A stretch of 64,000 nucleotides of DNA from positions 70,448 to 134,447 of the forward strand of contig JAQUOV010000001.1 of the NCBI GenBank assembly GCA_028716965.1, read 5' to 3'. How positions within the stretch are numbered: position 1 is the first letter of the stretch; each line of letters opens with the position of its first letter. Source of the DNA: Candidatus Omnitrophota bacterium (GTDB lineage Bacteria > Omnitrophota > Gorgyraeia > Gygaellales > Profunditerraquicolaceae). Below the pieces are notes generated by a model. The model worked only from the letters and a program-made list of their open reading frames with translations, was not told the origin of the DNA and searched no databases. This document shows, one piece after another, positions 1-64,000 of this stretch. The translations under genes were made by a program, and so were the position numbers.

Positions 1-527
1 AGCTTGGTCGCGCTGACCCTTAGCCCGCAGGCATCAGCCAAGCCGTAAATCTCTTTAGCGGTATAATAGTGTTTATGGTCGGTTACTTCTTCGGCTGTAA
101 CAACTTTTAGCTTAAAGGCAAGAAACTCCAGGACCGCCTTCGCCCGAGGGGTCGGCGTAGTGATAATTACACGGCCTTTCTTTTTTAAAACCCTGGAAAA
201 TTCAAAGAAAAGCGCCTGGACTTCTTTTACTTCAATGTGCTCCAGGACAGCAAGTAAAAAAACTTTATCAAAGAAACCCTCTTTTAAAGGCAATCTGCCC
301 TGGTACTTGTAACTTAGCAGGTGAATATTGCCTTCCTGGGAGTCCTTTACGTCATAATCCAGGCCATAACCAAGCCTGAACTTATTTTTCCCGCAAGTAA
401 GCAAATAATGCTGTACGCCGCAGCCTAAATCAAGCACAACGTCATCATCTTCAATATATTTTGCGGCAACCCATAAACGGTACTTTGAAATAAACTTATC
501 AAGCAAATTCCATTCTTTTGTATTCAT
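1..527 (-). CDS. Class I SAM-dependent methyltransferase, 5' part only (ORF runs off the window start)
   Basis: Own translation of the minus strand from the ATG at 527: MNTKEWNLLDKFISKYRLWVAAKYIEDDDVVLDLGCGVQHY... The VLDLGCG motif I (glycine-rich SAM loop) and a later acidic motif (LLAVLEH) are typical of Methyltransf_11/23 enzymes. There is no stop before position 1. Confidence 0.5.
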   Translation of the reverse strand, partial: MNTKEWNLLDKFISKYRLWVAAKYIEDDDVVLDLGCGVQHYLLTCGKNKFRLGYGLDYDVKDSQEGNIHLLSYKYQGRLPLKEGFFDKVFLLAVLEHIEVKEVQALFFEFSRVLKKKGRVIITTPTPRAKAVLEFLAFKLKVVTAEEVTDHKHYYTAKEIYGLADACGLRVSATK

Positions 528-530
528 AAT

Positions 531-1481
531 CTATTTAATTGGTTTATTTAAGAAAAACGCTCCGAGGAACCCGTCTTTACCAGTGCCCGCGTCAACAAAG
601 TCGTCATTTCCATACAGAGAAAGCCCGGAAGGGTTAATTATCTCATCAAAAAGTTTTTGCCTATATCCAAATCTTAAGCCTTTATCAGCAATCAGCACTT
701 TTCTATCAGGCCCATAATCAATAGTAAGGCCGACAATGCCTCCGGGCTTTAAGACGCGCGCTACCTCCCGCATCATCCTGCGCCGGACGCTTGAGGAAAG
801 ATGTTCTACCGTGCATATTGAAAAGACACGGTCAAAACTATTATCCGGAAACGGGATTGGCTTTGAAATATCCCTGTCAAAAACCTCAATATCCCATTTC
901 ATCTTTCTGGCTACATATTTTGTATTATAGATCATCCCGCAACAGCTCCAGTCATTATCAATGACCTTTACCGTGCATCCAAGGCTGGCTAAATAAAATA
1001 CAAACGCGGTTGAGGCCCCGCCAATGTCTAAGACTTTATCTCCTGCCTCAACCGCCGAATGGGCCGCCACCCAGGCATTCTCCCAGAGCTTGCGCTTCTC
1101 CGAATCCTGAGTATATGTGGCAGGAGTAAACATCCCTGCTGGCGAAGTATAGCGCAAGCCTCTTGCCTTAAGCAAAACCTTAACGGCTTCTATTTTCTGC
1201 GCGGCATCCTTTATCCCCGGCAAGGATAAATCTTCCTCAATCCAATAAGCGCTCTTATTAACAGTATCTTTTGGGTTAACTTTAGCCGCCCCGTTAAATG
1301 ACGCGAATTCCCCGTCACAAACAACATCTGCCGGGCCGCTTATTTTAGCTCTATGTTCATCTATGCGAACGCAGGTCTGGCGCTTGAGCTTACGGGCTGC
1401 GCAAAATATACGGTAATATAACGGCATATAAGCCGGGAATTGTTCAGCTCTATTTTTTATCATATTGGACACTGGCAGCAC
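531..1481 (-). CDS. Class I SAM-dependent methyltransferase
   Basis: VLDIGGASTAFVFYLASLGCTVKVIDND (motif I) and LKPGGIVGLTIDY (motif III-like). The 5' end overlaps the upstream polymerase-like gene, so the start may be an internal Met. Confidence 0.7.
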   Translation of the reverse strand: MLPVSNMIKNRAEQFPAYMPLYYRIFCAARKLKRQTCVRIDEHRAKISGPADVVCDGEFASFNGAAKVNPKDTVNKSAYWIEEDLSLPGIKDAAQKIEAVKVLLKARGLRYTSPAGMFTPATYTQDSEKRKLWENAWVAAHSAVEAGDKVLDIGGASTAFVFYLASLGCTVKVIDNDWSCCGMIYNTKYVARKMKWDIEVFDRDISKPIPFPDNSFDRVFSICTVEHLSSSVRRRMMREVARVLKPGGIVGLTIDYGPDRKVLIADKGLRFGYRQKLFDEIINPSGLSLYGNDDFVDAGTGKDGFLGAFFLNKPIK

Positions 1482-2742
1482 CGGAACCCAGCTTAATTAT
1501 AGCAACCGTTAAACCAAGCATAAACCAGAATAAAACTACAAGTTGCAGCGAATAAAAATGCGTATCAAAGAAAGCATGTGCCAGAAAAGCTAAAATACCT
1601 GATAAAAATCCCAGCGCCAGGTAATCTTTTTTCTGGTTAAGGTATCTTAAACCCATTCTGAAAAAACTATATAAAACAAAAAGAAAAGCAAGCAATCCGG
1701 GCAGGCCAGTTTCGGCTGCTTTCTGAAGATAAGAATTATGCGGATATACCCCCCCGCCTTCAAAACTCTTATACTTCTTGGCTACTATGGAATACGTATT
1801 TAGCCCACAGCCGAATAAAGGATAATCCCGTATTATCCTTACAGATTCTTTCCAAAGCATCACTCGTGCAGAAGTTGATGGGCCGCTTGACATAGACTTT
1901 AAACTTTCGTTAATCTGGCGGCTGAACGGAAAGTTAACCCAAATATAATATTTTACATTTATAACTACTGATCTCGGCAACAACAATCCAATGGCCAACA
2001 GAGATATAACCGTAATTATGCACGTTTTCTTAACTACTAAATTAGAATTCTTTAAAACATAATAAGCAATAAGCATAATCCCTGCCAGGAAACCAAACCA
2101 TCCTCCCCGGGAATAGGTTTTAATCAAATATAGGGACTGAATAGTAACCGCTGTTGATAATAAGATTTTCAACCTCAAATCCGGTATTACATTAGCAGCG
2201 ATTATCCCGATAAATATAGGAATAATTACAGTTAACCAGGCGGCAAAACCAGTTGAATTAGAAAATGAGGCACAAAAGGGATACAGCCCTAACTCATGCC
2301 CTCTTAAAAAATCCACCCCTTTAAAATACATCACTCCTGCGTCGATTATTATAAACACCGCAGAAGAAATAATCGCAATTAAAATAATTTTAAGGCGCTT
2401 TTTGCTGTTAATAACCTCAACCAGCATAAAATATATACCCAAGAATTTTAAATTTTTACCGAGAAGCCCGCGTAAAGACAAGCCAAAATTAGTACTGAAG
2501 ATGACAGATAACACATTAATCGCAATAAATGCTCCTAAAGCCATATTCAATTCAGTCTTGGGGAATATCCGCCATACTGAACCGGCCCTATATCCTAATA
2601 CTCTCTTTAAAAGAAAAATAAAAATTGCCGGCCAGACAAAACTTTCAATACCTGCTTTTGAAAAAGGTAAACAAAAAATTACAAAGCACAAGAAAGTAAT
2701 TATTGCGCAGTCACAATATAAGAAAATCTTATCTTTATTCAA
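1450..2742 (-). CDS. O-antigen ligase / Wzy-family polytopic membrane protein
   Basis: About ten predicted TM helices and a periplasmic-loop motif GGGVYPHNSYLQKAAETGLPGLLAFL, which resembles the Wzy_C / O-antigen ligase signature (H-N...ETG). Confidence 0.55.
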   Translation of the reverse strand: MNKDKIFLYCDCAIITFLCFVIFCLPFSKAGIESFVWPAIFIFLLKRVLGYRAGSVWRIFPKTELNMALGAFIAINVLSVIFSTNFGLSLRGLLGKNLKFLGIYFMLVEVINSKKRLKIILIAIISSAVFIIIDAGVMYFKGVDFLRGHELGLYPFCASFSNSTGFAAWLTVIIPIFIGIIAANVIPDLRLKILLSTAVTIQSLYLIKTYSRGGWFGFLAGIMLIAYYVLKNSNLVVKKTCIITVISLLAIGLLLPRSVVINVKYYIWVNFPFSRQINESLKSMSSGPSTSARVMLWKESVRIIRDYPLFGCGLNTYSIVAKKYKSFEGGGVYPHNSYLQKAAETGLPGLLAFLFVLYSFFRMGLRYLNQKKDYLALGFLSGILAFLAHAFFDTHFYSLQLVVLFWFMLGLTVAIIKLGSGAASVQYDKK

Positions 2743-4569
2743 CTATGCCCCTACTATCTCTTGCAATTTCTTCCTTACTCCAGGTTCATCCATTTCATTT
2801 ACAATCTTCTCTAACTCTTTTATTTTAAACCTCAATATATGCGAATCAAAATAATCTGACTGAGCAATATAAATCTTATCTATCTTGGTAGCTTTATCCT
2901 TTTCACTACTTAACAAGGTTTCCTCAAAAAGTTTCTCTCCCGGCCGCAGGCCAATAAATTTTATCTTTATGTCTTCTTCAGGCTTTAAGCCATAAAGACC
3001 AATCAACTCATTTGCCAAATCTAATATCTTGATCTGCTCACCCATATCCAAGATAAATATCTCTCCTGCCTTACCCATGCCACCGGCCTGCAGGACAAGT
3101 TGACTGGCTTCATGCACACTCATAAAATACCGCTTAACTTCCGGGTGCGTTAATGTTACAGGGCCGCCTTCTTCAATCTGTTTCTTAAATAAAGGAACAA
3201 CACTTCCGTCAGAACCTAAAACATTTCCAAATCTAACCGCCATAAACTTAGTTTTACTTATTTTGGCTTTAGACTGCAAAACCATCTCTGCGATCCTTTT
3301 AGTAATACCCATTACACTTGTCGGATTTACCGCCTTATCAGTAGAAATAAGAATAAACCTCTCGACTTTGTAGTGATCCGCGGCATAGATAAGGTTACGG
3401 CTTCCAATAATATTGTTCTTTACCGCTGCCACAGGATTTTCTTCCATAAGGGGAACATGCTTATGGGCTGCCGCGTGGAATATAACTTGCGGCTTATAAA
3501 GCGAAAACACGCTCTTCAACAGGCCGATATCTTTTATATCCCCGATTATGGTTTTAAACTTAATCTGGGGGTATTTTGTCAAGAATTCAATCCCCAAATA
3601 ATAAACATCATTCTCGTTATGATCAAATAACAATATCTCCTTGGGGTTAAAATTCACTATTTGTCTGCAAAGAGATGAGCCAATTGAGCCGCCCGCACCA
3701 GTAATCAAAACTACCTTCCCAGATAGATAACCCTTAATTTCATTTTCATTAATATTTACCGTTTCTCTACCAAGAAGGTCTTCTGGCTTAACGTCCCTGG
3801 GCTTAACCTCTAAATCGCCGTTGAGAATCCTTTGCAAACCAGGGACTATGCGAATTCTTACAGAAGATATTTGGCAATTTGAAATTATACTCCTGATTGC
3901 TTCGCCATTAGCAGAAGGGATAGCTATAATGACCTCATCAATCCCATATTTTTCAACAATTGAAGGTATATCACTACAGGCCCCTAAAATACTTATGCCT
4001 TGAATACGATAATTCTTTTTATTTCGATCATCATCAATAAAACCGATTATTTCTATATTTGCTTTAGGGTTAACCCTCACTTCTCTTAACACCATCACTC
4101 CGGCTTCCCCTGCACCTATAATAATAGCCCTTTTTAGCTTACTTCCTATAGCCGGACGGAATTTCTCCCGCAATAGCCGGGTAACAAAGCGGATCCCAGC
4201 CACCAAACAGAAACTTAAAACACATTCTAAGATGAAGATTGAACGCGGAAAACCTGCAAAAGTATGGAAAAAAGCAATCGTAGGGATAAAACAGAGCGTG
4301 GCTAAAACATGCGCCTTGGCTATTCTCCAGATATCATCTATACTGGCATATCTCCACAAACCAGAATAAAGGCCAAAGTATCCAAGAATAACCAATTTAA
4401 TACAGACAAAAATGGGGAGAGTTTTAAGAATCAGCTGCCAGACATCACTATCAATTCTAAAATCTAAGCGTAGATAAAAAGCAAGTATGTAGGCGCTCAC
4501 CACTAAAATTAAATGGATAGTTACAATAATTAAACGCCGACATTTAAAAATTAGCTCTTTCAGGCTCAT
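2743..4569 (-). CDS. Membrane-anchored UDP-sugar 4,6-dehydratase (PglF/CapD/WbpM family polysaccharide biosynthesis protein)
   Basis: Four N-terminal TM helices, then two Rossmann regions (IIIGAGEAG and VLITGAGGSIGSSLCRQI) and a catalytic region ISTDKAVNPTSVMGITKR, typical of CapD-like extended SDRs. Confidence 0.85.
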   Translation of the reverse strand: MSLKELIFKCRRLIIVTIHLILVVSAYILAFYLRLDFRIDSDVWQLILKTLPIFVCIKLVILGYFGLYSGLWRYASIDDIWRIAKAHVLATLCFIPTIAFFHTFAGFPRSIFILECVLSFCLVAGIRFVTRLLREKFRPAIGSKLKRAIIIGAGEAGVMVLREVRVNPKANIEIIGFIDDDRNKKNYRIQGISILGACSDIPSIVEKYGIDEVIIAIPSANGEAIRSIISNCQISSVRIRIVPGLQRILNGDLEVKPRDVKPEDLLGRETVNINENEIKGYLSGKVVLITGAGGSIGSSLCRQIVNFNPKEILLFDHNENDVYYLGIEFLTKYPQIKFKTIIGDIKDIGLLKSVFSLYKPQVIFHAAAHKHVPLMEENPVAAVKNNIIGSRNLIYAADHYKVERFILISTDKAVNPTSVMGITKRIAEMVLQSKAKISKTKFMAVRFGNVLGSDGSVVPLFKKQIEEGGPVTLTHPEVKRYFMSVHEASQLVLQAGGMGKAGEIFILDMGEQIKILDLANELIGLYGLKPEEDIKIKFIGLRPGEKLFEETLLSSEKDKATKIDKIYIAQSDYFDSHILRFKIKELEKIVNEMDEPGVRKKLQEIVGA

Positions 4570-4723
4570 GGTTTAATATTATATACCTAAATTTAAGTTT
4601 AGCAATTAGGAAAACACGGTAAGATTAAGCAAAATTATTTGATAAGATTTTATTTACGGACAAAATCATATTTATAAGGTATTTTTATACCATAACCTAT
4701 ATTACGCAGTTAATTATATTAAA

Positions 4724-6259
4724 TTAATTTCTTATTTCATTTCTATTTTTATCAATCCAAGCAGCAATATCATTATTGGTCTTTGTTTCATTCCTGAGAA
4801 TAGATAGAATTAAATCTCCTGTTAATACCGTATTAAAAGTTTTAGTGTATTTAACAAAATTATTTTGGCCAGCCATCTTGACCATAAATGGTATTCGATT
4901 GTCTTGCTTCATATTAAAAATTTTACTGTTGCGCAAATAATGGTCTGAAGTTACAATAATTGTGATATCATCATAAAGCTTGGATTTTTCAAGCATCCTT
5001 CGAATTTCCCCTAATGTCTTATCCGCCAATAGAAGGTTAGAAAAATATCCATTACTTTGGTCAACGAATAAGCTTATTTTTTGTTCTTTTTGGTCATAAA
5101 TAGAAGGCAAATGCGGTATGGGAAAATGCACCATGGCCAGATTGTAATCTGGATGGCCAATTATCTGCTTAACATTGTCCATTGTTTCCTCAAAAGCATC
5201 AATATGTTCTATAATTGCTGCAAAAGGCAACAAATGGATAAATTGTTCTTTCATGTTTTCTAAAAGACTGTCATAATTTCTAACAAGAAAGTATTCCCCG
5301 TGGACCTGAACACAAAAATCCAAATTATTCCCTAAGATATTACAATACGGATGATACCATCCGACAAAAGCGGAATTAAATCCTAAATTTCTAATCCGGG
5401 AAAATATGTTAGGCTGGGTTCCCCAAATAAAACGCTGATTTGTATCGGCATAGGTAATTTCCAATTTATTATTAGCCACAGGCAAAATTTTGCTCACAAG
5501 CTTCCCATCAATAAGAGCCGGAAAAACAACCATAGTTTCATCACCCGCAGGATAAGCATTCGTAGCATAAAAAGACTCTGACCGAAACCTGTCTAACTCA
5601 GGAAAGCTTAAACCGAACGGTCTTTGATCAAAAACAATCTTTTGATCGATTTCATCAAAAACTAACCATAATATACGTAAATGGTTTTGTTTTCCAACTG
5701 GTTCAACTTCTAAAATACAATCTTTTGGAGATACTGGTTTAGTTTTCTCGCATTTAACTATAGCTCCTATTGCCCCGCTAAAAGTAAAAAAAACAAAAGG
5801 AAATAAGAAAATTATACCCGCGGTTAACATTTTAAACAACAGACGGCTGAATTTCTTATAAAGCAATATCCCGAGAACAATAAGCAAAAACACAGCAACT
5901 AAACAAACCCAAATATTTAACTTCTTTAGAAAAAGTGAGACAGTAATTAACAAGGTTTGTAAAGAAAAACTCGTAGAAGTCTTCCTAATTACATTAAGAA
6001 TATTCAAAATTAAAACAAAAAAAGTAAATCTGGCGGTGCGTTGCACAAAGATATTATTACTTTTCCGAATGAGTCTTATAAAAATAAAAATCAGCGATGC
6101 CGCTATGAACACGTTGGTCATAAGCGCGAAATAACCGCTTGCGTTCGGCAAAACATGTATAGAATATTTTTGCGAATCAATAAGAAACAGGTAATTTATC
6201 CACAATTTTAAGAAACAAAGATTCGCAAAAGACATTGAGAACATTGCATCTTTAATCAT
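4724..6259 (-). CDS. Sulfatase / alkaline-phosphatase superfamily membrane protein (LtaS/EptA-like phospho-substituent transferase candidate)
   Basis: N-terminal polytopic TM region followed by a soluble domain with IIVTSDHY (the SDH motif of sulfatase/PEA-transferase folds). Confidence 0.5.
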   Translation of the reverse strand: MIKDAMFSMSFANLCFLKLWINYLFLIDSQKYSIHVLPNASGYFALMTNVFIAASLIFIFIRLIRKSNNIFVQRTARFTFFVLILNILNVIRKTSTSFSLQTLLITVSLFLKKLNIWVCLVAVFLLIVLGILLYKKFSRLLFKMLTAGIIFLFPFVFFTFSGAIGAIVKCEKTKPVSPKDCILEVEPVGKQNHLRILWLVFDEIDQKIVFDQRPFGLSFPELDRFRSESFYATNAYPAGDETMVVFPALIDGKLVSKILPVANNKLEITYADTNQRFIWGTQPNIFSRIRNLGFNSAFVGWYHPYCNILGNNLDFCVQVHGEYFLVRNYDSLLENMKEQFIHLLPFAAIIEHIDAFEETMDNVKQIIGHPDYNLAMVHFPIPHLPSIYDQKEQKISLFVDQSNGYFSNLLLADKTLGEIRRMLEKSKLYDDITIIVTSDHYLRNSKIFNMKQDNRIPFMVKMAGQNNFVKYTKTFNTVLTGDLILSILRNETKTNNDIAAWIDKNRNEIRN

Positions 6260-7688
6260 GCCTTATCCCTTTTAATGACAAAATATAAATATATCTTTCG
6301 GAACCTTCAATCCTCTCAAAACGTAGTATATTAAACTTTTCTAAAACGGCTTTCTCAAAACTCTGGCGAGTCAGATAAGCAAATAATTTCTCTCTTCCGC
6401 GCACTAATATTTTAAACATCTGGTCTTTTGGGTCAATATATTCAATAACAAGATGCCTGGTTGTCAACTCAGCTGCTAAATCCAGAATTTCATTCATGGG
6501 GATCCGCTCAGTTACCATCATGTGGTGCTTGACCGCCAGCATAAAAACAGCATCAAACTTACCCCTAGCCCTCTCTAAAAATGATTCACATTCTTTATTT
6601 AACCAACCGATACTCGGAGAAGGACGTGTCAAGTCTATATTTAATGGCAGTATATCTAATTTATATTCATACGCCTTCCGCCATAAACTACTTATAACCA
6701 CAGGGTCACTATCAATAGCTACGACCTTACTGCCGGCTTTGGCCGCAATTTCACTGAAATACCCCGTATTGCAACCTACATCCAATACCTGACGAGGCCT
6801 AAACTCATTTAAAAAATTAGAAACTATTCTATCCTTAACCTTCATTCCGTCTTCAGAATATGACATATTATTCTTAGCATAATCTGCCCATATGGATTGT
6901 CTGAGATTTACAGGCTTAAGGTTATTTATTTGCTTACGAATATTCTTAAAAAGCGCAAGAAGGATGAATGTTGCTATTTCATCTGCCTCTTCCAGCCTTT
7001 TTTTATAAATACCATAATCTTTTTTCTTTTGGATCTTTGATAATAAATTAGGTATTGCCACTATAGACAAAAAAGGCGGCAAGAATTGGCGCAAGCTACC
7101 GCAAAAATGTGATACATCTTCCGGTTCAATGCCGTCTCTACGGCTAAAGAAAATATCCGGCATCCGTAAACTAAAATATTTATTTACAAGTAGCGGTAAA
7201 GTAAAAGTACGTATAAACTGTCCATAAGGCAACCAAACGCTATCACGGGGATCGCGTTTTTCGAATGAAAGCATATCAATAAGAATGGGGTTGGGGCCTT
7301 CAAACATAATATTATATGGAGTAGCATCTTTAAGGGTATACCCTGCCGGTAGAATATCTACGGCAATATCCACCGTCAAGCAGGCTGCGGTATAAATCAT
7401 TTCAGGTGCCCACTCATAGGGATAAGACGGAAAATAGATCGCTTTGTGCTCTACTATTTCGAATTCTTCTTCTTTTAATGATATCCTATACCCTATCTCT
7501 TTTTTTTCTGGCTGTTTTAAAAACCTAGTCGCAATAACCTTCTCTTTATTTAAGAGTTTTTTACCTATGTCAGAACTTAAAAAAGATTCCAGGTCATTGC
7601 ACGAATCTTTACCTATAATTCTGAATATTTGCTTATCCAATCTAACAACAAAACCTACCGGATCCCGAAATGAAAGAACCTGCATCAA
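6252..7688 (-). CDS. Two-domain protein: unknown ~280-aa N-terminal domain fused to a class I SAM methyltransferase
   Basis: The C-terminal half carries VLDVGCNTGYFSEIAAKAGSKVVAIDSD (motif I) and DAVFMLAVKHH. The N-terminal half has no motif I recognise. Confidence 0.55.
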   Translation of the reverse strand: MMQVLSFRDPVGFVVRLDKQIFRIIGKDSCNDLESFLSSDIGKKLLNKEKVIATRFLKQPEKKEIGYRISLKEEEFEIVEHKAIYFPSYPYEWAPEMIYTAACLTVDIAVDILPAGYTLKDATPYNIMFEGPNPILIDMLSFEKRDPRDSVWLPYGQFIRTFTLPLLVNKYFSLRMPDIFFSRRDGIEPEDVSHFCGSLRQFLPPFLSIVAIPNLLSKIQKKKDYGIYKKRLEEADEIATFILLALFKNIRKQINNLKPVNLRQSIWADYAKNNMSYSEDGMKVKDRIVSNFLNEFRPRQVLDVGCNTGYFSEIAAKAGSKVVAIDSDPVVISSLWRKAYEYKLDILPLNIDLTRPSPSIGWLNKECESFLERARGKFDAVFMLAVKHHMMVTERIPMNEILDLAAELTTRHLVIEYIDPKDQMFKILVRGREKLFAYLTRQSFEKAVLEKFNILRFERIEGSERYIYILSLKGIRHD

Positions 7689-7691
7689 TAT

Positions 7692-7889
7692 CTACTCCTT
7701 ATTTTTCTTGCGCCAAAAAAACCTTAAGATCTTCTTTATTGAAAATAGGGCGCCAACAAAAAAAGAAAATACAAGTTGCCACAATAATAACCCGGAACCC
7801 GGATCAATATATGCATATGCTGATTTTACGGTCAAAAAGCTCAATATTAAAAAAACCAGAAAAATTTGACATAAATGTCTTATTTTCAT
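7692..7889 (-). CDS. Small (65 aa) signal-peptide/TM protein, hypothetical
   Basis: Hydrophobic N-terminus with a signal-like sequence, a YIDPGSGLLLWQ segment and a second hydrophobic stretch. It sits 3 nt from the next gene. It could equally be an unannotated leader or a spurious ORF. Confidence 0.3.
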   Translation of the reverse strand: MKIRHLCQIFLVFLILSFLTVKSAYAYIDPGSGLLLWQLVFSFFVGALFSIKKILRFFWRKKNKE

Positions 7890-8453: not shown

Positions 8454-8554
8454 GTTTTACACAATTCTTAGAGTCGATAGAGACTCCATTATGGTAATAT
8501 ATCATGACTTTTATACAAAGGCTATTTTCTAGAAAAACAGGGGATACTTTAATT

Positions 8555-56836: not shown

Positions 56837-57855
56837 ATTGATTTTAACGCCTTTCGTAGCTCTGTTTGCGTCAACCATTTTTTATTAGTATCACTAGCAT
56901 AGCTGAATCCTACAGGCACTTTTGTATATTTTTCATATTTTTCGTTAATTGCCCTTCCCCCTGAGAATTGCGGCATAATAACATAGAGACCATTAAATAT
57001 CTTTGCATTCCGCGCCTCATCACATGAAATTAGAAGCTCATGCAGCTTTTCTCCCGGTCGAATACCTATTTTCTTAAATTTGCATTCAGGCAGGATCGCT
57101 CGGGCAAGATCTACTATCTTCATAGACGGTATTTTTGGAACAAATATTTCGCCGCCTTCGGCCTCTTTAAGAGCCGTAATCACAAAATTAACACTCTGTT
57201 CCAAAGTCATCCAAAAACGCGTCATTGCATCATCGGTAATGGGAAACTCGGTTATACCGCGCCGTTTAAGATCAAGAAAAAGCTCAATAACGCTTCCTCT
57301 TGAAGCCATAACATTACCATAACGAACGACGGAGAACTTAACACGATTTCCGCCATAAGCGTTCGCGTTGATAAATATCTTTTCAGCTACCAGCTTAGTG
57401 GCACCATAAAGATTAATAGGATTTACCGCTTTATCCGTCGACAGTACTATAACTTTTTTTACGCCTCGGTCAAGAGCCGCATCAACAATATTATCGGCCC
57501 CTTGTATATTAGTCTTTACCGCTTCAAGAGGGTTATATTCAAGCGCTGGCACCTGTTTTAAGGCAGCGGCATGAATAACATAATCTACCCCCTCAAAAGC
57601 CCTACAAAGACGCCCCTTATCCCTGACATCTCCTAAGAAAAAACGAATCGGGTACTTGTCATCCGGAAATACTTTTGCCATTTCGCTTTGCTTGAATTCG
57701 TCCCTGCTGAAAATTATAAGCTTCTTTAATTTGAATTTTTTAAATACCATTTCGGTAAACTTCTTACCGAAAGAACCTGTTCCACCGGTCACCAGAATTA
57801 CTTTATCTTTCAAGTTCACAATCCCCTCCTCGCTCATCTTCCCATAGGCCATCAT
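56833..57855 (-). CDS. pseB: UDP-N-acetylglucosamine 4,6-dehydratase (inverting) / 5-epimerase (PseB/FlaA1-like)
   Basis: KVILVTGGTGSFGKKF...IIFSRDEFKQSEM...STDKAVNPINLYGATK is the short CapD/PseB-type SDR. Confidence 0.85.
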   Translation of the reverse strand: MMAYGKMSEEGIVNLKDKVILVTGGTGSFGKKFTEMVFKKFKLKKLIIFSRDEFKQSEMAKVFPDDKYPIRFFLGDVRDKGRLCRAFEGVDYVIHAAALKQVPALEYNPLEAVKTNIQGADNIVDAALDRGVKKVIVLSTDKAVNPINLYGATKLVAEKIFINANAYGGNRVKFSVVRYGNVMASRGSVIELFLDLKRRGITEFPITDDAMTRFWMTLEQSVNFVITALKEAEGGEIFVPKIPSMKIVDLARAILPECKFKKIGIRPGEKLHELLISCDEARNAKIFNGLYVIMPQFSGGRAINEKYEKYTKVPVGFSYASDTNKKWLTQTELRKALKSI

Positions 57856-59752
57856 TTATAAAGAAAGCACTCTCTATGTTATTTACTTTCTTATACCGCT
57901 CCGCTGCTAAATCCAGCGATTTAATAGGATCCCTGCTTACGACCACATCTTCCATAAAAATTCGGATAAATTCGCTTATTCTACTCTGACCTTTAAAATC
58001 ACCGAAATAGTTAAAAACATCTTTCCATTTAGAAAAATCTCCTATCCTGGTATCTCCTGTGCTCACTCGATTAAGAGCTGATACTATTTCCTCGAGATTC
58101 TTAAAAAATATCTTTTGCTCCGGATCTCTGTATATCGGATAATGTAGAAATCCGGATAAGTCCCAATGTATAGCCCTATGACCATAAATACCACTTATTA
58201 TTCCCGCCGAGTTCAAACCATAACAAACTGATATATTTGCATACGCCGCAGCTGTAATAGGCGAAACTTTGTTATTAAGAAAAACAAGTCTTCTCTGATT
58301 GATAAGCAACATTGCTTTTGAAACGATATCTTTACCGAAAGGCAAAGATTCAAGGTCATTTATTCTACCCCAGATTTTACTCTTTATTATCCCACCCCAT
58401 TCTGAGTTTTCCTCAAGCATCTCCAATACCTTAAGGTAGAATCTGGCCAAAGTCTCCTCTGATTGATGTATATTATACGCCACAGTAGAATCAAAAATTG
58501 CCATGATAAATCTTAGATCATCTTTCATACAGATCGCGCTGACATCTTCAACCGAGGGTCCCAACCATATACCCACCGGCAAAACATGACGGGCAATATT
58601 GCCCCTCTTTTGCATCCGTTCATACATCACTTTACCCCAAACAAAATATACATGCTGAGGATGGGACATCAAAGCTTCCTTGTAAAATGGAAAATTGGAC
58701 CAATGATACCCCAGCATAATCCCACCTACTTCTTCAAGTGCTATCATCTGTGGCTCTTTCACCCAAGACCCTTCCTGATGTTCAATCAGCACTTTCACCT
58801 TAAAGCGGCTGAAGACCGCTTTGTAGAGAAGATAAAACATTCTGAATTCGAACCGGAAAACTCTAAACCAAAACGGAGAACTCGAATAAGCGGAAAGAAA
58901 AGTACAAAACATATCCCAAAGTTGCCAAACACCTATATTGGCAAGCCGCACAAGAGAACCTGAACGCAAATCTACCCATTTTAAGCCCATATCCTCTATA
59001 GCCCTGATCTCATCCTCTAAAGAAACACCATCATTCCGATCAAGATAACAAACGATATCAAATTTCTTTCTATCTATGACATCGTGATTAAATGGAAAAC
59101 TACACCTACCATAATGAAGATACTCTAACCAGACGGATGGCTTGGGCTCATGAATATTAGTTCTTCCTCTTTTCTGAAATAACCTTTTCACCACAATTGA
59201 AAAAAGCCTGCAACACGGTATTAAAAAATAATTAACATACCCAAAAGATAACCCAGATTCCCTTATGCTATAACCTTTATCTCTATAATACTTCTTAATC
59301 ACTGAAGTTAAAGGATGCTTAGCCAGATAAATCACATTTATTCCACCATCTTGCTTAAACTTATCGCTACCCTCAACCATAGTTATAAATGTAACATAAG
59401 GCGCTAAATAAAAACTTATATATACTTTTACCGCGCTTTTAAAGCGCTCTGGTTCTTTCGGAATATACCTCTGGCAAAATTTACTCAGACAGATATCAAG
59501 ATCATTCTCCTTCCTATAGTTAAGGGCATAGCCTATCACATCTTTTTTATCCAAAGTCAATTTTGCCATATAAAAATTTTTGCAACAACCATAACTTTGC
59601 AATTTGCCAATTAAGAATGCTGCAATACCAGAAATCTTTTTTTCATCATACCTAACAGGAATTCGAGAAAAAAAAGTTTCGATAAATAGCCATATAAAAT
59701 CAAACATACCAAGCTTTTCAACCCAAATTGACAGTATCCTTTTATATCGCAT
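57803..59752 (-). CDS. Large (649 aa) uncharacterized protein, candidate novel transferase
   Basis: No recognised motif and mostly soluble. It sits between a B12 radical SAM gene and pseB, and its 3' end overlaps the pseB start by about 50 nt. Confidence 0.3.
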   Translation of the reverse strand: MRYKRILSIWVEKLGMFDFIWLFIETFFSRIPVRYDEKKISGIAAFLIGKLQSYGCCKNFYMAKLTLDKKDVIGYALNYRKENDLDICLSKFCQRYIPKEPERFKSAVKVYISFYLAPYVTFITMVEGSDKFKQDGGINVIYLAKHPLTSVIKKYYRDKGYSIRESGLSFGYVNYFLIPCCRLFSIVVKRLFQKRGRTNIHEPKPSVWLEYLHYGRCSFPFNHDVIDRKKFDIVCYLDRNDGVSLEDEIRAIEDMGLKWVDLRSGSLVRLANIGVWQLWDMFCTFLSAYSSSPFWFRVFRFEFRMFYLLYKAVFSRFKVKVLIEHQEGSWVKEPQMIALEEVGGIMLGYHWSNFPFYKEALMSHPQHVYFVWGKVMYERMQKRGNIARHVLPVGIWLGPSVEDVSAICMKDDLRFIMAIFDSTVAYNIHQSEETLARFYLKVLEMLEENSEWGGIIKSKIWGRINDLESLPFGKDIVSKAMLLINQRRLVFLNNKVSPITAAAYANISVCYGLNSAGIISGIYGHRAIHWDLSGFLHYPIYRDPEQKIFFKNLEEIVSALNRVSTGDTRIGDFSKWKDVFNYFGDFKGQSRISEFIRIFMEDVVVSRDPIKSLDLAAERYKKVNNIESAFFINDGLWEDERGGDCELER

Positions 59753-59764
59753 CCTTTATACCTC

Positions 59765-61177
59765 TCAGGTTTGCCTAAAACCTCTAAAATCTTTGTTTTT
59801 ACTTAAGTAGAGCTTCTCTGCCTCACTGATCATAGTATCTGCCTTTTTACTAAAATAATTACTTATAAGCTTTGTGTTAGCCGATAATAAAGCCTTGTGA
59901 ATTTCTTTATCGCTCATTTCGGTAAAATTAACCGCTAAAAGATCGGAATTTATATGCTTATTTTCATAAAAATCTTCGCAATCTTTTAATAGACCCTTCT
60001 CTATAGCATGATAGTAAAGTGGCGAACCAGGATATGGAGTAACCGGGCGTATCGTGCGCATTTGCGCACCATCATCGTATTTTAATAAAAATTCTACACC
60101 CTTTTGTAGAGTTTCATCACTATCACCAATATTGCCAAAAATAATATTGAATCCAGGACTAATCCCACTAGCTAGCGTTGCATTAATACCTTCGATAATT
60201 TGTTTTACTGTTAGAATCTTTTTCATGTTCTTCAATACTTGATCATCCATAGCCTCAATTCCATAATTTATAAAAACACAACCTGCCTGCTTCATTAATT
60301 TAAGGAGGTCAATTTTCGCATAATTAAGACGTCCGTTACAGTCCCATTTGATATTAAGTTTCGCTTTAATAAAATCCTTACAAAGCATTTCAGTTCTTTC
60401 CATTGAAGACATCAATAATTCATCGGAAAAAGCGATATACGTTATCCCATATTTCTCCTTCAATAACCGGACCTCATCAATTATGCTCTCATTTGAACGT
60501 GGCCTAAACCCTTCATCAAGACGATAACAAAAACTACAGGTAAAGTTACATCCCCTACCAGAAAGCACAGGCATTACAAAATCAGTATTGGTCACATGAG
60601 GCATCCGTAAAAGTCTATAATACTCTACCGGAAAAAGATGGAAAGCTGGAAAAGGTATTTGATCAATATCTTTGATCAGCTCACGTTTTTTATTTATGAC
60701 AACATCATCTCCTTCACGAAAAGCGATTCCATTAATATTTGAAAGAGATTTTTTATTGATAATTGCATCCAACAATTCCACAATCGTTACTTCCCCTTCA
60801 CCCATAACAACAGCATCTGCAGAGGTACGTCTTAGAAAAAACTCTGGTTCTGGAGACGGGCCATGCCCTCCAATAATGTAAAATGGCCGACGGCGCGAGT
60901 TGTTTATTGCTCGGGAAATACGTAAAAGTTTATTATATTGGTAATAACCAGCAATCACGCTAACACCGATAATATCAAATACATTCTTATTTAGGTATTG
61001 AGTAAGATGGTTATCGTGATAATGTTCTTTATCTTGATTGTATATTTCAACATAATATCCCGCCTTTTCCATTACCGATGCTATATACGCCAAACCTTGC
61101 GGAAACCAATGAATATATGAATCGTTATCGTAAGCTACCAGTAAAATTTTGGCATTCTTATTTTTTCTAGTATGCAT
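59765..61177 (-). CDS. B12-binding radical SAM enzyme (class B)
   Basis: KILLVAYDNDSYIHWFPQGLAYIASVM (B12-like domain) and LSGRGCNFTCSFCYR (CxxxCxxC). Confidence 0.8.
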   Translation of the reverse strand: MHTRKNKNAKILLVAYDNDSYIHWFPQGLAYIASVMEKAGYYVEIYNQDKEHYHDNHLTQYLNKNVFDIIGVSVIAGYYQYNKLLRISRAINNSRRRPFYIIGGHGPSPEPEFFLRRTSADAVVMGEGEVTIVELLDAIINKKSLSNINGIAFREGDDVVINKKRELIKDIDQIPFPAFHLFPVEYYRLLRMPHVTNTDFVMPVLSGRGCNFTCSFCYRLDEGFRPRSNESIIDEVRLLKEKYGITYIAFSDELLMSSMERTEMLCKDFIKAKLNIKWDCNGRLNYAKIDLLKLMKQAGCVFINYGIEAMDDQVLKNMKKILTVKQIIEGINATLASGISPGFNIIFGNIGDSDETLQKGVEFLLKYDDGAQMRTIRPVTPYPGSPLYYHAIEKGLLKDCEDFYENKHINSDLLAVNFTEMSDKEIHKALLSANTKLISNYFSKKADTMISEAEKLYLSKNKDFRGFRQT

Positions 61178-62412
61178 TAATCATCTACTCCGTCATTATT
61201 CACTGTATGCCGCAATCTCCACTTACCATTCACTTTAGTCCATAAATGAGGAGACCGAAACTTATCACATAATTCCATGAAATGCTCAGGCGTAATCCCA
61301 ATATAATCTAAAACTTCCTTGGAATACCTACTTGGAACTTCCCCATCGAATCGCTTAACCAAAGACTTTCCCTCTTCTCTGTTCAGATGTTTATTTCTGA
61401 TTTCTTGAGAAGCATCATATGAAGCTCGGCCGATACCAAATTTAATAAAAGTGGTATAATAATGGAAGTCATCACATTTATCATCGATACTATTGTATTT
61501 ACTATAGGTTCCTTCGGTTCGAAACGGCCTAGCCTGAAAATTAGTATGTTCAACGGCGTAATAATACGCTTCTTGGGGCGTCCATTTAACATAATACCCC
61601 ATATAATGCACTTCAATATTACCTTGTTCTAATTCTGTATAATTAGGAGGTAAATATACCATCAAGTCATTTAGACACAAACCATATTTCTCAATCAATT
61701 CTTTTATCGAAACACCACTCAGTAAGATACCCGACATATTTTGCATGGCATAATAAGATTTATCTCTTAGTGACGTCTTGGTTTCCGCGATAGGATTCCC
61801 ATACTCAGCTTCAGATTCACCGTAAAAAACAAGCGGCACTTTATATTTTAATGCTATTTTTGGTGGGAGATTTTTTTGCCCCAGAGCAAACGTATGAAAA
61901 GGATGTAGAAGATTCTCAAAAGACAACTTAGTGAGCAGTTTATGAATTTTGGCATTTGGTTTAAAAGTTATATTGTCAAAACCACCTACATCAATCCAGT
62001 TGCAGAAATTCTTATATCCGTATTCAGTATACAAAAGCGGCGACCAGGTAACGGTTAACGGGTGCATACCATATTTATATTTCAATAAATGAGAGGCGTA
62101 AACGCTATCCTTTCCGCCGCTACCTGGAACAATACAGTCATATCGACCGTCATTTTTTCTGTGCCTATCCAAAAGTCTTAACAACTCTTTTTCTCTTTTT
62201 CCCCAATCAATCTGTTCCTTCTGTTCTGCGAATCTACAGGCATCACAAATTCCTTCTTTATCGATTTGCAGACCTGTATGTTTATGTCTCACAGAATGCT
62301 TAAATTCCACGTTAGATTTTGGTCTTTGATTAGACATTACACACCGCTTGCAAAAAATAATATTTTCAGGCAAACCGGTTATGGAAACTAACCTTTCTTT
62401 TTTCTCCACCAC
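61177..62412 (-). CDS. N-acetyl-sugar amidotransferase, PP-loop ATPase (PseA/WbuX/LfnA-like; makes acetamidino sugars)
   Basis: CIVPGSGGKDSVYASHLL (SGGxDS PP-loop) and N-terminal Cys motifs (FCKRCVMSN...CDACR). Confidence 0.8.
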   Translation of the reverse strand: MVEKKERLVSITGLPENIIFCKRCVMSNQRPKSNVEFKHSVRHKHTGLQIDKEGICDACRFAEQKEQIDWGKREKELLRLLDRHRKNDGRYDCIVPGSGGKDSVYASHLLKYKYGMHPLTVTWSPLLYTEYGYKNFCNWIDVGGFDNITFKPNAKIHKLLTKLSFENLLHPFHTFALGQKNLPPKIALKYKVPLVFYGESEAEYGNPIAETKTSLRDKSYYAMQNMSGILLSGVSIKELIEKYGLCLNDLMVYLPPNYTELEQGNIEVHYMGYYVKWTPQEAYYYAVEHTNFQARPFRTEGTYSKYNSIDDKCDDFHYYTTFIKFGIGRASYDASQEIRNKHLNREEGKSLVKRFDGEVPSRYSKEVLDYIGITPEHFMELCDKFRSPHLWTKVNGKWRLRHTVNNDGVDD

Positions 62413-62421
62413 TTTACCTCC

Positions 62422-63084
62422 TTAATAACTCTTAACGATTTGTGCCCACTTACCATAAATCTCTAAACCCATCTTCGCACTCTTTTCCGGATGAAATTGA
62501 CAAGCAAATACATTTCTCCAAGAAAGACTAGAACAATATTTTATACCAGCATAATTCGATACAGATAATATTACCTTTTCATCCACAGGCTTACAATAAT
62601 AGGAATGCACAAAATACATAAATTCCCCGTTCTTCTGTCCTTCTAATGGCGTTCTATCCCAGGAAATTTCGTTACCACCATACCTACTCCTTTTAATCAT
62701 ATTCCAGCCAACTTGAGGTATTTTATATGAGTTACCCTTATTGTTAACCGTAGGGAATTTTGTAACGATCCCCGAAAAAATGCTGAGTCCTTTTGACTTA
62801 CTGAATTCTTCGCTTTCGCTAAACAAAAGTTGCATACCCAAACAAATCCCCATAAAAGGCTTACCTAATTTTATATAATCTACAATTAAATCAACTAAGC
62901 CTCTCTCTTGTAAAGTTTTCATCGCTTCGGCAAATGCCCCAACACCAGGCAATATTACTCCGGAGGATCTAAAGATATCACTCTTTAAACAAGTAATTTT
63001 AGCTGGCAAACCTACATTCTCACACGCCTGTTGTATACTAAATAAATTTCCCATATCATAATCAATGATTGCCACCTTATGCAT
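62422..63084 (-). CDS. hisH: Glutamine amidotransferase subunit, HisH paralog (WbuY-like ammonia donor for amidotransferase)
   Basis: MHKVAIIDYDMGNLFSIQQACENVG, then a GICLGMQLL catalytic Cys region and H/E near the C-terminus. Start trimmed to the ATG at 63084. Confidence 0.85.
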   Translation of the reverse strand: MHKVAIIDYDMGNLFSIQQACENVGLPAKITCLKSDIFRSSGVILPGVGAFAEAMKTLQERGLVDLIVDYIKLGKPFMGICLGMQLLFSESEEFSKSKGLSIFSGIVTKFPTVNNKGNSYKIPQVGWNMIKRSRYGGNEISWDRTPLEGQKNGEFMYFVHSYYCKPVDEKVILSVSNYAGIKYCSSLSWRNVFACQFHPEKSAKMGLEIYGKWAQIVKSY

Positions 63085-63958
63085 GAACTGCCTCCGCATT
63101 CACACGATGCCGACAGTCAACCTGGAAGCGATGTAGATATTCTTTGATCTCCGGAAGATTCGCCGTTTGTATTTTTGAGAAACTTTTACCGCTTTTTAAG
63201 TATTCAATATTACCTTCAATCTTAAATAGTTCCTTATCCACAATTTGCTTTTTTATAAAGTCATAGTGCAGAACTGAAGCCAAACAAACTGCGTCTGCAC
63301 ATCCCTCTAAAATAACATTTGTTATATCGGATAAATTTCCTGCACCACCGCTTGCGATAACGGGTATAGAGACTGCGCATGAGACCATCTTTGTCAAAGT
63401 AAGATCATATCCTGAACCCGTGCCTTCCCGATCAATTGAAACTAATAAGATTTCACCGGCACCAAGTGCTTCAACCCGCTGAGCCCATTCTAACACTTCT
63501 ACCCCCGAATATTCCCTGCCATTATCAGTATATGCTAAATAACGTCCATCCGATTGTTTTATCGCCTCAATGGCAACCACAATTGTTGATGAACCAAATC
63601 TTCGCGCCGCTTCGCTAATAATCTTCGGATCTTTTAAAGCCGCAGTATTTAATGAAACCTTATCCGCTCCGGCACGCAAAACGTTTCTTATGTCATCGAT
63701 TGTACGCAAACCGCCACCTACTGTTAAAGGAATAAAAATTTCTTTAGCTGTTTTTGCAATTATATCATGAAGGCTATTTCTATTGTATAAGCTGGCAACT
63801 ACATCTATATATATAAGTTCATCAGCACCGTTTTCATAATAATATTTTGCGAAATTCTCGGGTTTACCTAAAACCCTCAGGCCTTCCAGATGAATGCCTT
63901 TTACTAAATTCGGCCCTTTTATATCTAAACGGGGAATAATTCTAATGTTTTTTGACAT
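63077..63958 (-). CDS. hisF: Cyclase subunit, HisF paralog (WbuZ-like, ammonia channel partner)
   Basis: IRIIPRLDIKGPNLVKGIHLEGLRVLGKP and (beta/alpha)8 repeats with GADKVSLNTAA and GAGEILL. Confidence 0.85.
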   Translation of the reverse strand: MSKNIRIIPRLDIKGPNLVKGIHLEGLRVLGKPENFAKYYYENGADELIYIDVVASLYNRNSLHDIIAKTAKEIFIPLTVGGGLRTIDDIRNVLRAGADKVSLNTAALKDPKIISEAARRFGSSTIVVAIEAIKQSDGRYLAYTDNGREYSGVEVLEWAQRVEALGAGEILLVSIDREGTGSGYDLTLTKMVSCAVSIPVIASGGAGNLSDITNVILEGCADAVCLASVLHYDFIKKQIVDKELFKIEGNIEYLKSGKSFSKIQTANLPEIKEYLHRFQVDCRHRVNAEAVHA

Positions 63959-64000
63959 AGTCGCTTATTTCTTGCTTTGATTCGCTTTTATGAATGCGGC

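Follow-up and report, generated by a model that had tools for sequence, protein, structure and literature searches.

A dense co-directional array of surface-glycan genes in an Omnitrophota bacterium, probably a mosaic supercluster expressed as a few long polycistrons

Here we describe a 64,000-nucleotide stretch of contig JAQUOV010000001.1 (positions 70,448–134,447; assembly GCA_028716965.1, Candidatus Omnitrophota bacterium), hereafter the window, which after refinement of start codons holds 62 genes, all on the minus strand, with ~98.6% of the sequence coding. The explanation that we consider probable is that the window represents a mosaic, leading-strand surface-glycan supercluster, expressed as a few long polycistrons. 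Such a supercluster would lie on the G-rich, presumably leading, strand, would comprise 64 or more genes in a span of at least 65.8 kb, and would have been built from horizontally mobile cassettes of two to five genes, with its likeliest transcript breaks at non-coding gaps near 34.5, 27.3, 13.8, 8.5 and 4.6 kb and translational coupling predicted at 24 overlapping junctions.

Gene layout and extent of the array

Gene order, strand and junctions were observed directly. In the open reading frame (ORF) listing, positions 531–63958 are tiled by 60 minus-strand ORFs that are complete and ≥100 aa long, next to a methyltransferase gene (3–527, minus strand) truncated by the window start, a tiling far beyond chance for ORFs. 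The plus strand has 14 ORFs of at least 100 aa, all of 101–150 aa and each nested within minus-strand ORFs, and a Pfam scan at E ≤ 0.1 of nine of these 14 gave no match. The 61 junctions (median 2 nt) comprise 24 overlaps, with 4 nt shared at ten and 8 nt at five, and gaps of 0–20 nt (26 junctions), 21–40 nt (six), 41–100 nt (two) and >100 nt (three), such that 50 of the 61 overlap or are separated by ≤20 nt and 56 by ≤40 nt. A sequence-only reading of the window had placed every credible coding sequence (CDS) on the minus strand in about 60 consecutive co-directional genes, with gaps mostly under 40 bp, all of which the present count bears out, and the minus strand has the nine junctions that it quoted at exactly the positions given (ATGA at 22747–22750, 44717–44720, 25072–25075, 41202–41205, 40279–40282, 31127–31130, 33581–33584 and 36423–36426; TAATG at 61175–61179). 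The two gaps that it gave as longest, 4570–4723 and 13729–13939, stand as such once the ~200 nt at 7689–7889 are filled by a real 65-aa gene (7692–7889), which it had not listed. The five largest non-coding gaps are:

4570–4723: 154 nt, GC 21%; contains a candidate promoter (TTGCTA-16-TATAAT, 8 nt before the ATG at 4569)
8454–8554: 101 nt, GC 30%
13714/13729–13939: the longest, 211–226 nt by start codon choice, GC 36%; no hairpin followed by a T-run
27288–27355: 68 nt
34502–34593: 92 nt, GC 28%; a synteny breakpoint in relatives

Some of the large apparent overlaps, for example 134 nt at 28623–28756, probably result from over-extended start calls. For the minus-strand genes at 27818–28756, 42950–43849, 56833–57855 and 22322–22807, the start of the longest ORF probably precedes the true one, since conserved domains begin 40–50 residues in or a Shine-Dalgarno site marks an internal start.

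The deposited annotation gives the same picture. NCBI accessions MDD5560573.1 (2743–4569) to MDD5560630.1 (63077–63958) are consecutive, 58 accessions for the same 58 genes, and the difference in accession number equals our minus-strand gene count in eight of eight sub-intervals, so that the annotation has no extra plus-strand CDS between 2.7 and 64 kb; substantial plus-strand coding was looked for in the NCBI annotation and there was none. GC skew is −0.05 to −0.28 over the whole window, and this constant strand asymmetry explains part of the uniform gene orientation. The window is low in GC, its coding strand is purine-rich and its Shine-Dalgarno sites are strong, features that might point to an S-layer or flagellin-glycosylation island of a Firmicute; this reading, and a Leptospira origin on account of the LIC12162 family, were ruled out by window proteins that are 100% identical to those of a Candidatus Omnitrophota MAG. 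Scans for tRNA genes and Rfam families in the window found nothing.

The 649-aa protein encoded at 57803–59752 is 100% identical to NCBI PHT50_00630, on a 276,780-bp contig, and nine further window proteins are exact entries on the same contig. A Logan contig (L001; 8.7 kb, run SRR22315506) matches window positions 57121–64000 over 6,880 bp at 100% identity and reaches 1.8 kb farther upstream, where the same strand carries two more genes, for a PseF-like cytidylyltransferase and a CBS-nucleotidyltransferase of PtmE-like type. With these, the array comprises ≥64 genes and spans ≥65.8 kb, and its 5' end lies beyond the window. In the relative L010 (64% identical), genes of a legionaminic-acid-like set (DegT, PtmE-like, NeuB, NeuC and cytidylyltransferase) stand ahead of the corresponding position, which suggests that the run continues upstream here too.

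Mosaic structure

GC content varies from 33 to 46% along the window and per-gene GC at third codon positions (GC3) from 0.29 to 0.50, a patchy composition that is consistent with blocks having been acquired separately. The GDP-sugar/aminotransferase block (20290–26369) has a GC content of 42–47% and GC3 of up to 0.50; the end carrying Wzx, the phosphoglycosyl transferase and the ligase (1–15000) has a GC content of 33–37% and GC3 of ~0.30–0.35. Tandem duplication was ruled out as the origin of the array, the closest in-window paralogues being no more than 34.5% identical.

Shuffling of cassettes was seen directly in relatives; scans of genome and metagenome contigs found only relatives of ≤76% identity. 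On L002, from an Omnitrophota metagenome-assembled genome (MAG), the order is PtmE-like, cytidylyltransferase, WbuX/Y/Z, B12-binding radical S-adenosyl-methionine (SAM) enzyme (67% identity), homologue of the 649-aa protein (48%), one ORF, HpcH aldolase (48%) and KdsB-like (66%), so that between the 649-aa gene and the aldolase there is one ORF on L002 compared with 11 genes in the window (the pseudaminic acid (Pse) block, LIC12162 and ABC). L008 and L009 keep a dehydrogenase/SDR/cyclase/HAD cassette (65–83% identity) and the gene for a 610-aa protein (65–67%), and their surroundings all differ. This cassette (window 38983–42113; L008 5142–8271; L009 4888–8024) is the most conserved block and always lies near the 610-aa GT-B gene; on L008 the LIC12162 and ABC genes stand immediately before it. 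L010 has WbuZYX and the 649-aa homologue followed by a different gene set, and the most persistent pair, B12-radical-SAM and 649-aa GT-B, recurs on L002, L003, L012 and L013. The units conserved across relatives are small cassettes of two to five genes, not the whole array, and the comparison of synteny that the sequence-only reading had proposed found these cassettes recurring in different orders, always dense and co-directional. On L008, L009, L010, L012 and L013 all called genes run in one direction, their median gaps being −4 to 3 nt, and L012 carries five B12-radical-SAM genes in 22 kb (1–21914); the dense one-strand layout and the richness in radical SAM enzymes are thus lineage traits of these Omnitrophota glycan regions. 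The cassettes that would make up the window are the Pse pathway; WbuXYZ with a B12-radical-SAM enzyme and the 649-aa GT-B protein; the aldolase with the KdsB-like enzyme; the dehydrogenase/SDR/cyclase/HAD set with the 610-aa GT-B protein; a second NeuB/CMP-transferase set; a GDP-mannose branch; a Wzx/Wzy/glycosyltransferase block; and a PglC/PglF/ligase block.

Transcription and alternative explanations

The five AT-rich non-coding gaps (68–226 nt) coincide with cassette borders, and those at 34.5 and 27.3 kb are synteny breakpoints. Promoter consensus counts over the whole window were 83, 60 and 54 compared with 68.6 ± 8.3, 52.5 ± 7.6 and 60.6 ± 8.0 in shuffles, the coding strand carrying ~1.7 promoter-like matches per kb, and the five gaps held five promoter-like sites where 2.1 ± 1.5 were expected from composition-preserving shuffles (P = 0.07). 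Counts of intrinsic terminators over the whole window were at shuffle level, there was no hairpin with a T-run in any real gap, and the sole minus-strand hairpin near a ‘gap’ (7806–7788) lies within the 65-aa gene. Promoter and terminator prediction, also proposed by the earlier reading, stayed at chance level. No part of the window is richer in AT than the 4570–4723 gap. Its TTGCTA-16-TATAAT is a possible internal promoter: 8 nt separate its end from the start codon of the PglF-like gene, an ATG with no Shine-Dalgarno site, and the transcript of this gene would be leaderless or near-leaderless if the promoter is real. A GGCGGTA at 13931–13937 (minus strand), at the start of the longest gap just after wzx, resembles the proteobacterial ops/JUMPStart core; it is probably a coincidence, ~8 such heptamers being expected by arithmetic in 128 kb of strand, and we give it no weight.

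The sequence-only reading had taken the array to be one giant super-operon. A true super-operon, in which the whole array and the genes upstream of it would form one transcription unit with a single promoter and an antitermination factor such as a NusG paralogue, would fit the 50 of 61 junctions that overlap or lie within 20 nt (median 2 nt), the real gaps with no terminator-like hairpin, the terminator counts at shuffle level and the non-significant promoter-like matches in gaps, and operons of 70–80 kb with specialised NusG paralogues are known (PMC6391919). It is nevertheless unlikely given that five AT-rich gaps of 68–226 nt stand at cassette or synteny borders, that TTGCTA-16-TATAAT directly precedes a PglF-like gene with no Shine-Dalgarno site, that GC3 is spread, that cassettes move independently and are re-ordered among relatives, that there are two flippases, and that no antiterminator gene or leader is visible in the window, the 5' end of the array lying outside it. 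Furthermore, we know of no documented bacterial operon of more than 60 genes. A single super-operon is thus not favoured and is less likely than a few units. That at least 64 genes over at least 66 kb form one antitermination-dependent unit for a hyper-methylated, multi-ulosonic-acid glycan tailored by B12-radical-SAM chemistry is very doubtful; if true, this would be the largest bacterial operon by gene count known to us, with a B12-radical-SAM tailoring that is not known from characterised O-antigen or capsule pathways. At the other extreme, uniform orientation might reflect leading-strand bias only, with at least ten short, independently promoted operons for several unrelated glycoconjugates side by side, for which the constant and strong strand asymmetry, the two- to five-gene cassettes as the units conserved across genomes, and the ~1.7 promoter-like matches per kb of coding strand as raw material for internal starts can all be cited. 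We regard this as rather unlikely, however, because most genes, given 24 overlaps and 26 gaps of ≤20 nt, have no space in front of them for a canonical promoter, which would need to lie within upstream coding sequence, whilst all 62 genes share a single functional theme and the cassette borders of relatives are just as tightly abutted. A MAG chimera that joined glycan cassettes of different strains or species is suggested by the strong GC3 differences between blocks and by the tendency of metagenome assemblies to mis-join at conserved sugar genes, but such an artefact is highly improbable: the independent Logan assembly of SRR22315506 reproduces 6,880 bp at 100% identity, the Logan collection has exact copies of seven of nine proteins sampled across the window, neither GC skew nor gene packing is interrupted, near-identical repeated genes that could seed mis-joins are absent (paralogues ≤34.5% identical), and relatives have the same architecture on contigs of 49–242 kb.

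Several points weigh against the mosaic supercluster of a few long polycistrons that we prefer. The gaps are weak evidence for separate units, since promoters and terminators were statistically undetectable (P = 0.07 for the gaps), and read-through of the whole array would be compatible with them. The consensus scans lack statistical power here, the consensus used may not match Omnitrophota promoter and terminator rules, and the number of transcription units is deduced from gene layout. Substrates and products are assigned by family membership, with PseH, PseF-like, Gmd, Fcl, LegC-like and the second NeuB under cut-off, and a Wzy_C domain does not distinguish lipopolysaccharide (LPS) from a protein acceptor.

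Gene content and the predicted glycan

Gene families were assigned from Pfam and NCBIfam scans, with curated NCBIfam cut-offs where stated. PseB, PseC, PseG, PseI, WbuX, LIC12162 and the KdsB-like subfamily scored above these cut-offs, the PseH-like GNAT protein scored 67 bits (cut-off 93) and the PseF-like gene upstream on L001 158 (cut-off 206), other CTP_transf_3 genes being present; a Pse pathway with acetamidino (WbuXYZ) genes thus appears to be encoded, its PseH- and PseF-like members falling under the cut-offs. Further putative routes comprise a second NeuB/CMP-transferase set, a KdsB-like/aldolase set and a GDP-mannose branch. The sequence-only reading had counted at least four activated-sugar pathways, an understatement given at least five predicted here, and the assembly components that it had named are present (Wzx, E 4e-63; Wzy_C, E 7e-22; a Wzy-like protein with nine transmembrane (TM) segments; a fused ABC exporter; Bac_transf, E 4e-59). 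There are seven classical glycosyltransferases and eight SAM methyltransferases in the window. Its genes, all on the minus strand (−), are as follows.

From 1 to 15 kb:
3–527 (−): class I SAM methyltransferase, 3' end cut by the window start (Methyltransf_23, E 1.7e-11)
531–1481 (−): class I SAM methyltransferase (Methyltransf_11, E 3.7e-14)
1450–2742 (−): Wzy_C membrane protein, of WaaL O-antigen ligase or PglL/TfpM O-oligosaccharyltransferase type (PF04932, E 7e-22; ~8 TM; weak TfpM match, 36 bits)
2743–4569 (−): membrane-anchored PglF/CapD-type UDP-sugar 4,6-dehydratase (Polysacc_synt_2, E 1.7e-119, and CoA_binding_3; MDD5560573.1)
4724–6259 (−): membrane sulfatase/phosphodiesterase-fold protein, putative phosphoethanolamine/phosphoglycerol-like phospho-substituent transferase (Sulfatase, E 1.8e-10; Phosphodiest, E 1e-6; three N-terminal TM)
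6252–7688 (−): 478-aa protein with C-terminal SAM methyltransferase domain (Methyltransf_25/23/11)
7692–7889 (−): 65-aa small membrane protein, absent from the NCBI annotation (586 family representatives, E ≤ 1e-3)
7890–8453 (−): small monotopic phosphoglycosyl transferase of PglC/WbaP-C type, initiating enzyme (Bac_transf, E 4.4e-59)
8555–10219 (−): B12-binding radical SAM enzyme no. 1 (B12-binding, E 3e-17; Radical_SAM, E 8e-18)
10256–11095 (−): FkbM-family methyltransferase (PF05050, E 4.8e-10)
11114–12232 (−): membrane-anchored GDSL/SGNH hydrolase, putatively for O-acyl handling (Lipase_GDSL_2, E 4.8e-8)
12269–13081 (−): GT2 glycosyltransferase (PF00535, E 1.3e-19)
13111–13728 (−): 205-aa protein with a GDS motif, SGNH-like by eye only (no Pfam/NCBIfam match)
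13940–15238 (−): Wzx-type oligosaccharide flippase (Polysacc_synt_3, E 3.7e-63; ~12 TM; NCBI ‘oligosaccharide flippase family protein’)

From 15 to 35 kb:
15259–16080 (−): GT2 glycosyltransferase (E 5e-26)
16083–17027 (−): GDP-L-fucose synthase-like epimerase/reductase (Epimerase, E 3.6e-51; GDPFucSynFcl 276 bits, cut-off 500)
17020–17838 (−): GT2 glycosyltransferase (E 2e-15)
17877–18980 (−): GT-B (Glycos_transf_1) glycosyltransferase (E 2e-14)
18977–20287 (−): 436-aa polytopic membrane protein, putative Wzy-type polymerase by its position among glycosyltransferases (~9 TM; no family match)
20290–21330 (−): GT2 glycosyltransferase (E 2.4e-28)
21323–22306 (−): GDP-mannose 4,6-dehydratase (PF16363, E 4.5e-102; gmd 379 bits; NCBI name)
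22322–22807 (−): NUDIX hydrolase, GDP-mannose mannosyl hydrolase-like; probable start 22750, giving the ATGA overlap
22747–23955 (−): NDP-hexose C-methyltransferase type (Methyltransf_14, E 5.7e-38; Methyltransf_13)
23957–25075 (−): DegT/LegC-family sugar aminotransferase (E 3.7e-119; LegC family 336 bits)
25072–25488 (−): WbuC-like cupin, weak (TIGR04366, 29.7 bits, under cut-off)
25485–26369 (−): GT2 glycosyltransferase (E 1.6e-10)
26370–27287 (−): SDR sugar epimerase/reductase (Epimerase, E 5.8e-28; L008 homologue 75% identical)
27356–27805 (−): RmlC/FdtA-type cupin sugar isomerase/epimerase (dTDP_sugar_isom, E 7e-9)
27818–28756 (−): GT2 glycosyltransferase, start probably over-called, domain from residue 49 (E 2.6e-36; L009 homologue 271 aa)
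28623–29597 (−): SDR sugar epimerase/dehydratase (E 4.9e-33)
29604–31130 (−): B12-binding radical SAM enzyme no. 2 (Pfam scan)
31127–31927 (−): CMP-sugar cytidylyltransferase (CTP_transf_3, E 1.9e-33)
31941–32954 (−): second NeuB-family nonulosonic-acid synthase (NeuB, E 7e-63; NeuB_NnaB 300 bits, under cut-off)
32973–33584 (−): nitroreductase-family flavoprotein (E 2.7e-26)
33581–34501 (−): aldo/keto reductase (E 1.3e-33)

From 35 to 64 kb:
34594–36426 (−): 610-aa orphan GT-B-fold protein, putative ulosonic-acid transferase (no Pfam/NCBIfam match; AF2 pLDDT 88; Foldseek GT-B matches, E ~1e-9)
36423–37469 (−): radical SAM/SPASM enzyme (Pfam scan)
37459–38967 (−): B12-binding radical SAM enzyme no. 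3 (Pfam scan)
38983–39624 (−): HAD phosphatase, in the four-gene cassette 38983–42113
39617–40282 (−): cyclase-family protein, same cassette
40279–41205 (−): SDR, same cassette
41202–42113 (−): PGDH-like 2-hydroxyacid dehydrogenase, same cassette
42123–42944 (−): SAM methyltransferase (L009 homologue 81% identical)
42950–43849 (−): KdsB-like CMP-ulosonic-acid cytidylyltransferase, probable start 43723 (PRK13368 subfamily, 306 bits, cut-off 255; L002 66%, beside aldolase)
43725–44747 (−): SAM methyltransferase, probable start 44720, giving the ATGA overlap
44717–45478 (−): HpcH/HpaI-family class II pyruvate aldolase (E 4.7e-32; HpaI/GarL-like, under cut-offs)
45509–47326 (−): ABC half-transporter with fused transmembrane and nucleotide-binding domains (TMD-NBD), PglK-like lipid-linked-oligosaccharide flippase (ABC_membrane and ABC_tran; full-length PglK/WlaB match, E 8e-72)
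47343–49097 (−): LIC12162-family transferase, an O-antigen-locus family first defined in Leptospira (TIGR04331, 378 bits, cut-off 225)
49098–50144 (−): pseudaminic acid synthase PseI (TIGR03586, 468 bits, cut-off 340)
50087–50848 (−): WbqC-family protein (PF08889, E 2e-59)
50839–51339 (−): GNAT acetyltransferase, PseH-like (67 bits, cut-off 93)
51343–52410 (−): radical SAM/SPASM enzyme (Pfam scan)
52426–53316 (−): SAM methyltransferase (Methyltransf_23, E 6e-23)
53337–54353 (−): PseG, UDP-sugar hydrolase (TIGR03590, 274 bits, cut-off 154)
54370–55704 (−): class III aminotransferase, glutamate-1-semialdehyde aminomutase-like
55673–56878 (−): PseC aminotransferase (TIGR03588, 507 bits, cut-off 424)
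56833–57855 (−): PseB, inverting UDP-GlcNAc 4,6-dehydratase (TIGR03589, 477 bits, cut-off 408)
57803–59752 (−): 649-aa orphan GT-B-fold protein, new Pfam PF27878 ‘PFTS_polysacc’ (AF2 pLDDT 90; Foldseek GT-B matches including polysialyltransferase 5wcn)
59765–61177 (−): B12-binding radical SAM enzyme no. 4, conserved partner of the 649-aa protein (60–69% identical, adjoining, on L002, L003, L012 and L013)
61177–62412 (−): WbuX N-acetyl-sugar amidotransferase (TIGR03573, 357 bits, cut-off 203)
62422–63099 (−): HisH-like glutamine amidotransferase, WbuY role (GATase, E 2e-16)
63077–63958 (−): WbuZ/HisF-like cyclase subunit (WbuZ 276 bits, slightly under the cut-off of 300; MDD5560630.1)

Three orphan proteins of ~600 aa are encoded at 34594–36426 (TIGR04326-like), 47343–49097 (LIC12162) and 57803–59752 (PF27878), each beside CMP-sugar genes. 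The 610-aa and 649-aa proteins had no match in the searched Pfam copy or NCBIfam; a JGI homologue of the 610-aa protein bears the name TIGR04326 ‘surface carbohydrate biosynthesis protein’, and this protein has weak local similarity to the LIC12162 protein. The structure models of these two proteins, the two of the three orphans that were modelled, have GT-B glycosyltransferase-like folds. All three belong to uncharacterised families and are candidates for the transfer of CMP-activated ulosonic acids. The HpcH/HpaI aldolase and KdsB-like cytidylyltransferase (window 42950–45478, minus strand) are paired again at L002 19512–21037 (48% and 66% identity). This pairing is a hint that a CMP-activated 3-deoxy-ulosonic acid may be made with an aldolase in the role of a KdsA/NeuB-type synthase, and a hydroxy-acid side chain is a possible product of the four-gene cassette at 38983–42113.

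The ABC protein (45509–47326) aligns end to end with Campylobacter jejuni PglK, its best full-length solved relative (E 8e-72). It is the sole ABC protein in the window, in which an ABC-2 type permease with a separate NBD is absent, and Wzm/Wzt ABC-dependent O-antigen export was ruled out given this PglK-like, fused TMD-NBD transporter. The presence of two flippase types, PglK-like and Wzx, suggests more than one product, that is, two lipid-linked products. No window protein matched a Wzz/PCP chain-length regulator family, which could lie elsewhere in the genome, and Pfam scans of the window proteins gave no match to the capsule export families Wza/Wzc, KpsMT and KpsC/S. Maf/FlmG flagellin glycosyltransferase and flagellin genes had no match in the window or on L001, and the window has no gene for the PglB (STT3) oligosaccharyltransferase and no dTDP-rhamnose genes.

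B12-binding radical SAM genes lie at 8555–10219, 29604–31130, 37459–38967 and 59765–61177 and SPASM genes at 36423–37469 and 51343–52410; these explicit coordinates give four of the B12 type compared with five in an overall count, for a radical SAM total of six to seven. A literature search found no paper tying B12-binding or SPASM radical SAM enzymes to O-antigen, capsule or nonulosonic-acid loci. The gene for the 65-aa membrane protein (MKIRHLCQIFLVFLILSFLTVKSAYAYIDPGSGLLLWQ...) is flanked by those for the phosphoglycosyl transferase and a methyltransferase. In a library of 1.84 billion proteins this protein's family counts 586 cluster representatives at E ≤ 1e-3, most of them 55–100 aa long.

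Taken at the level of gene families, the array would supply the cytoplasm with acetamidino CMP-Pse, a second CMP-nonulosonate, an acid resembling CMP-Kdo (3-deoxy-D-manno-oct-2-ulosonic acid), GDP-6-deoxyhexose derivatives and a UDP-2-acetamido-4-keto-6-deoxy sugar. Assembly on undecaprenyl phosphate would be started by the PglC-type transferase and continued by the seven classical and about three orphan GT-B transferases, with tailoring by the eight SAM methyltransferases, the B12- and SPASM radical SAM enzymes, acyl/ester enzymes and the phospho-transferase-like protein. Flipping may be by Wzx and/or the PglK-like ABC protein and polymerisation by the Wzy-like protein, the Wzy_C protein then transferring the product to lipid A-core or to proteins. 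The output would be one undecaprenyl-linked glycan or, more likely given two flippases, two, rich in modified ulosonic acids and methyl groups.

Comparison with known loci

Density and length beyond those of typical O-antigen or capsule loci, as the sequence-only reading had claimed, hold with respect to typical loci, but are not unprecedented, the Leptospira rfb locus exceeding 100 kb and density being a lineage trait. The architecture is thus not new in kind, and its interest comes mainly from the organism and the unusual enzyme set. Nearly every gene of the leptospiral rfb locus is on a single strand, a point on which the papers searched, which give size and content, make no explicit statement. 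As an analogue, and not the same locus given the Omnitrophota organism, the rfb locus is the closest precedent: it spans ~4 kb to >100 kb (PMC13111663), has hallmarks of horizontal transfer (PMC9736851) and encodes glycosyltransferases, SAM methyltransferases, pyridoxal phosphate-dependent aminotransferases, cupins and an ABC_membrane-type transporter, with genes for Wzy-dependent processing at its 3' end (PMC10958091), and nonulosonic acids are made by Leptospira (PMC3438082). Both are very large surface-glycan loci with the same enzyme classes, and the window has a member of the LIC12162 family, which was defined from rfb. Unlike rfb, the window lacks dTDP-rhamnose genes, has at least three predicted CMP-ulosonic-acid routes and three orphan GT-B proteins, and comes from a different phylum; it also has B12- and SPASM radical SAM enzymes, whereas the terms ‘radical SAM’ and ‘B12’ are absent from the text of the rfb survey (PMC10958091).

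With the Campylobacter pgl and nonulosonic-acid loci the array shares a PglF-like dehydratase, a PglC-like transferase, a PglK-like flippase, a predicted PseBCHGI pathway, a PtmE-like CBS-nucleotidyltransferase upstream and amidotransferase genes for acetamidino groups, whilst it differs from them in having Wzx, a Wzy-like protein and Wzy_C in place of PglB (STT3), Maf and flagellin genes, and in being several-fold larger. The Tannerella forsythia O-glycosylation locus, likened here by shared pathway families only, similarly has genes for a modified Pse or legionaminic acid cap beside glycosyltransferases, methyltransferases and a flippase (PMC5378307), but is much smaller, belongs to another phylum and has no described radical-SAM set. 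Operons under RfaH/LoaP/UpxY antitermination, for polysaccharides and antibiotics, are likewise long, on one strand and horizontally acquired, with 70–80 kb documented (PMC6391919); the genes of those long examples are few and giant, however, and no NusG paralogue, ops or leader was identified here, the start of the array being outside the window.

Cells carrying this locus probably have a heavily decorated surface, in which several sialic-acid-like sugars are joined by many methyl groups and, possibly, products of radical-SAM tailoring; such a surface would be relevant to attachment to, or evasion of, hosts or prey. The locus also offers a test bed for the transcription of very long co-directional arrays and for the roles of LIC12162, TIGR04326-like, PF27878 and glycan-associated B12-radical-SAM enzymes. 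A phylum-wide genomic study of the Omnitrophota (PMC10066038) makes no mention of LPS, O-antigen, glycosylation or sialic-acid-type sugars. These bacteria are uncultured and mostly ultra-small, with genomes of 0.86–3.2 Mb (PMC10066038), such that an array of at least 66 kb would occupy roughly 2–8% of the genome.

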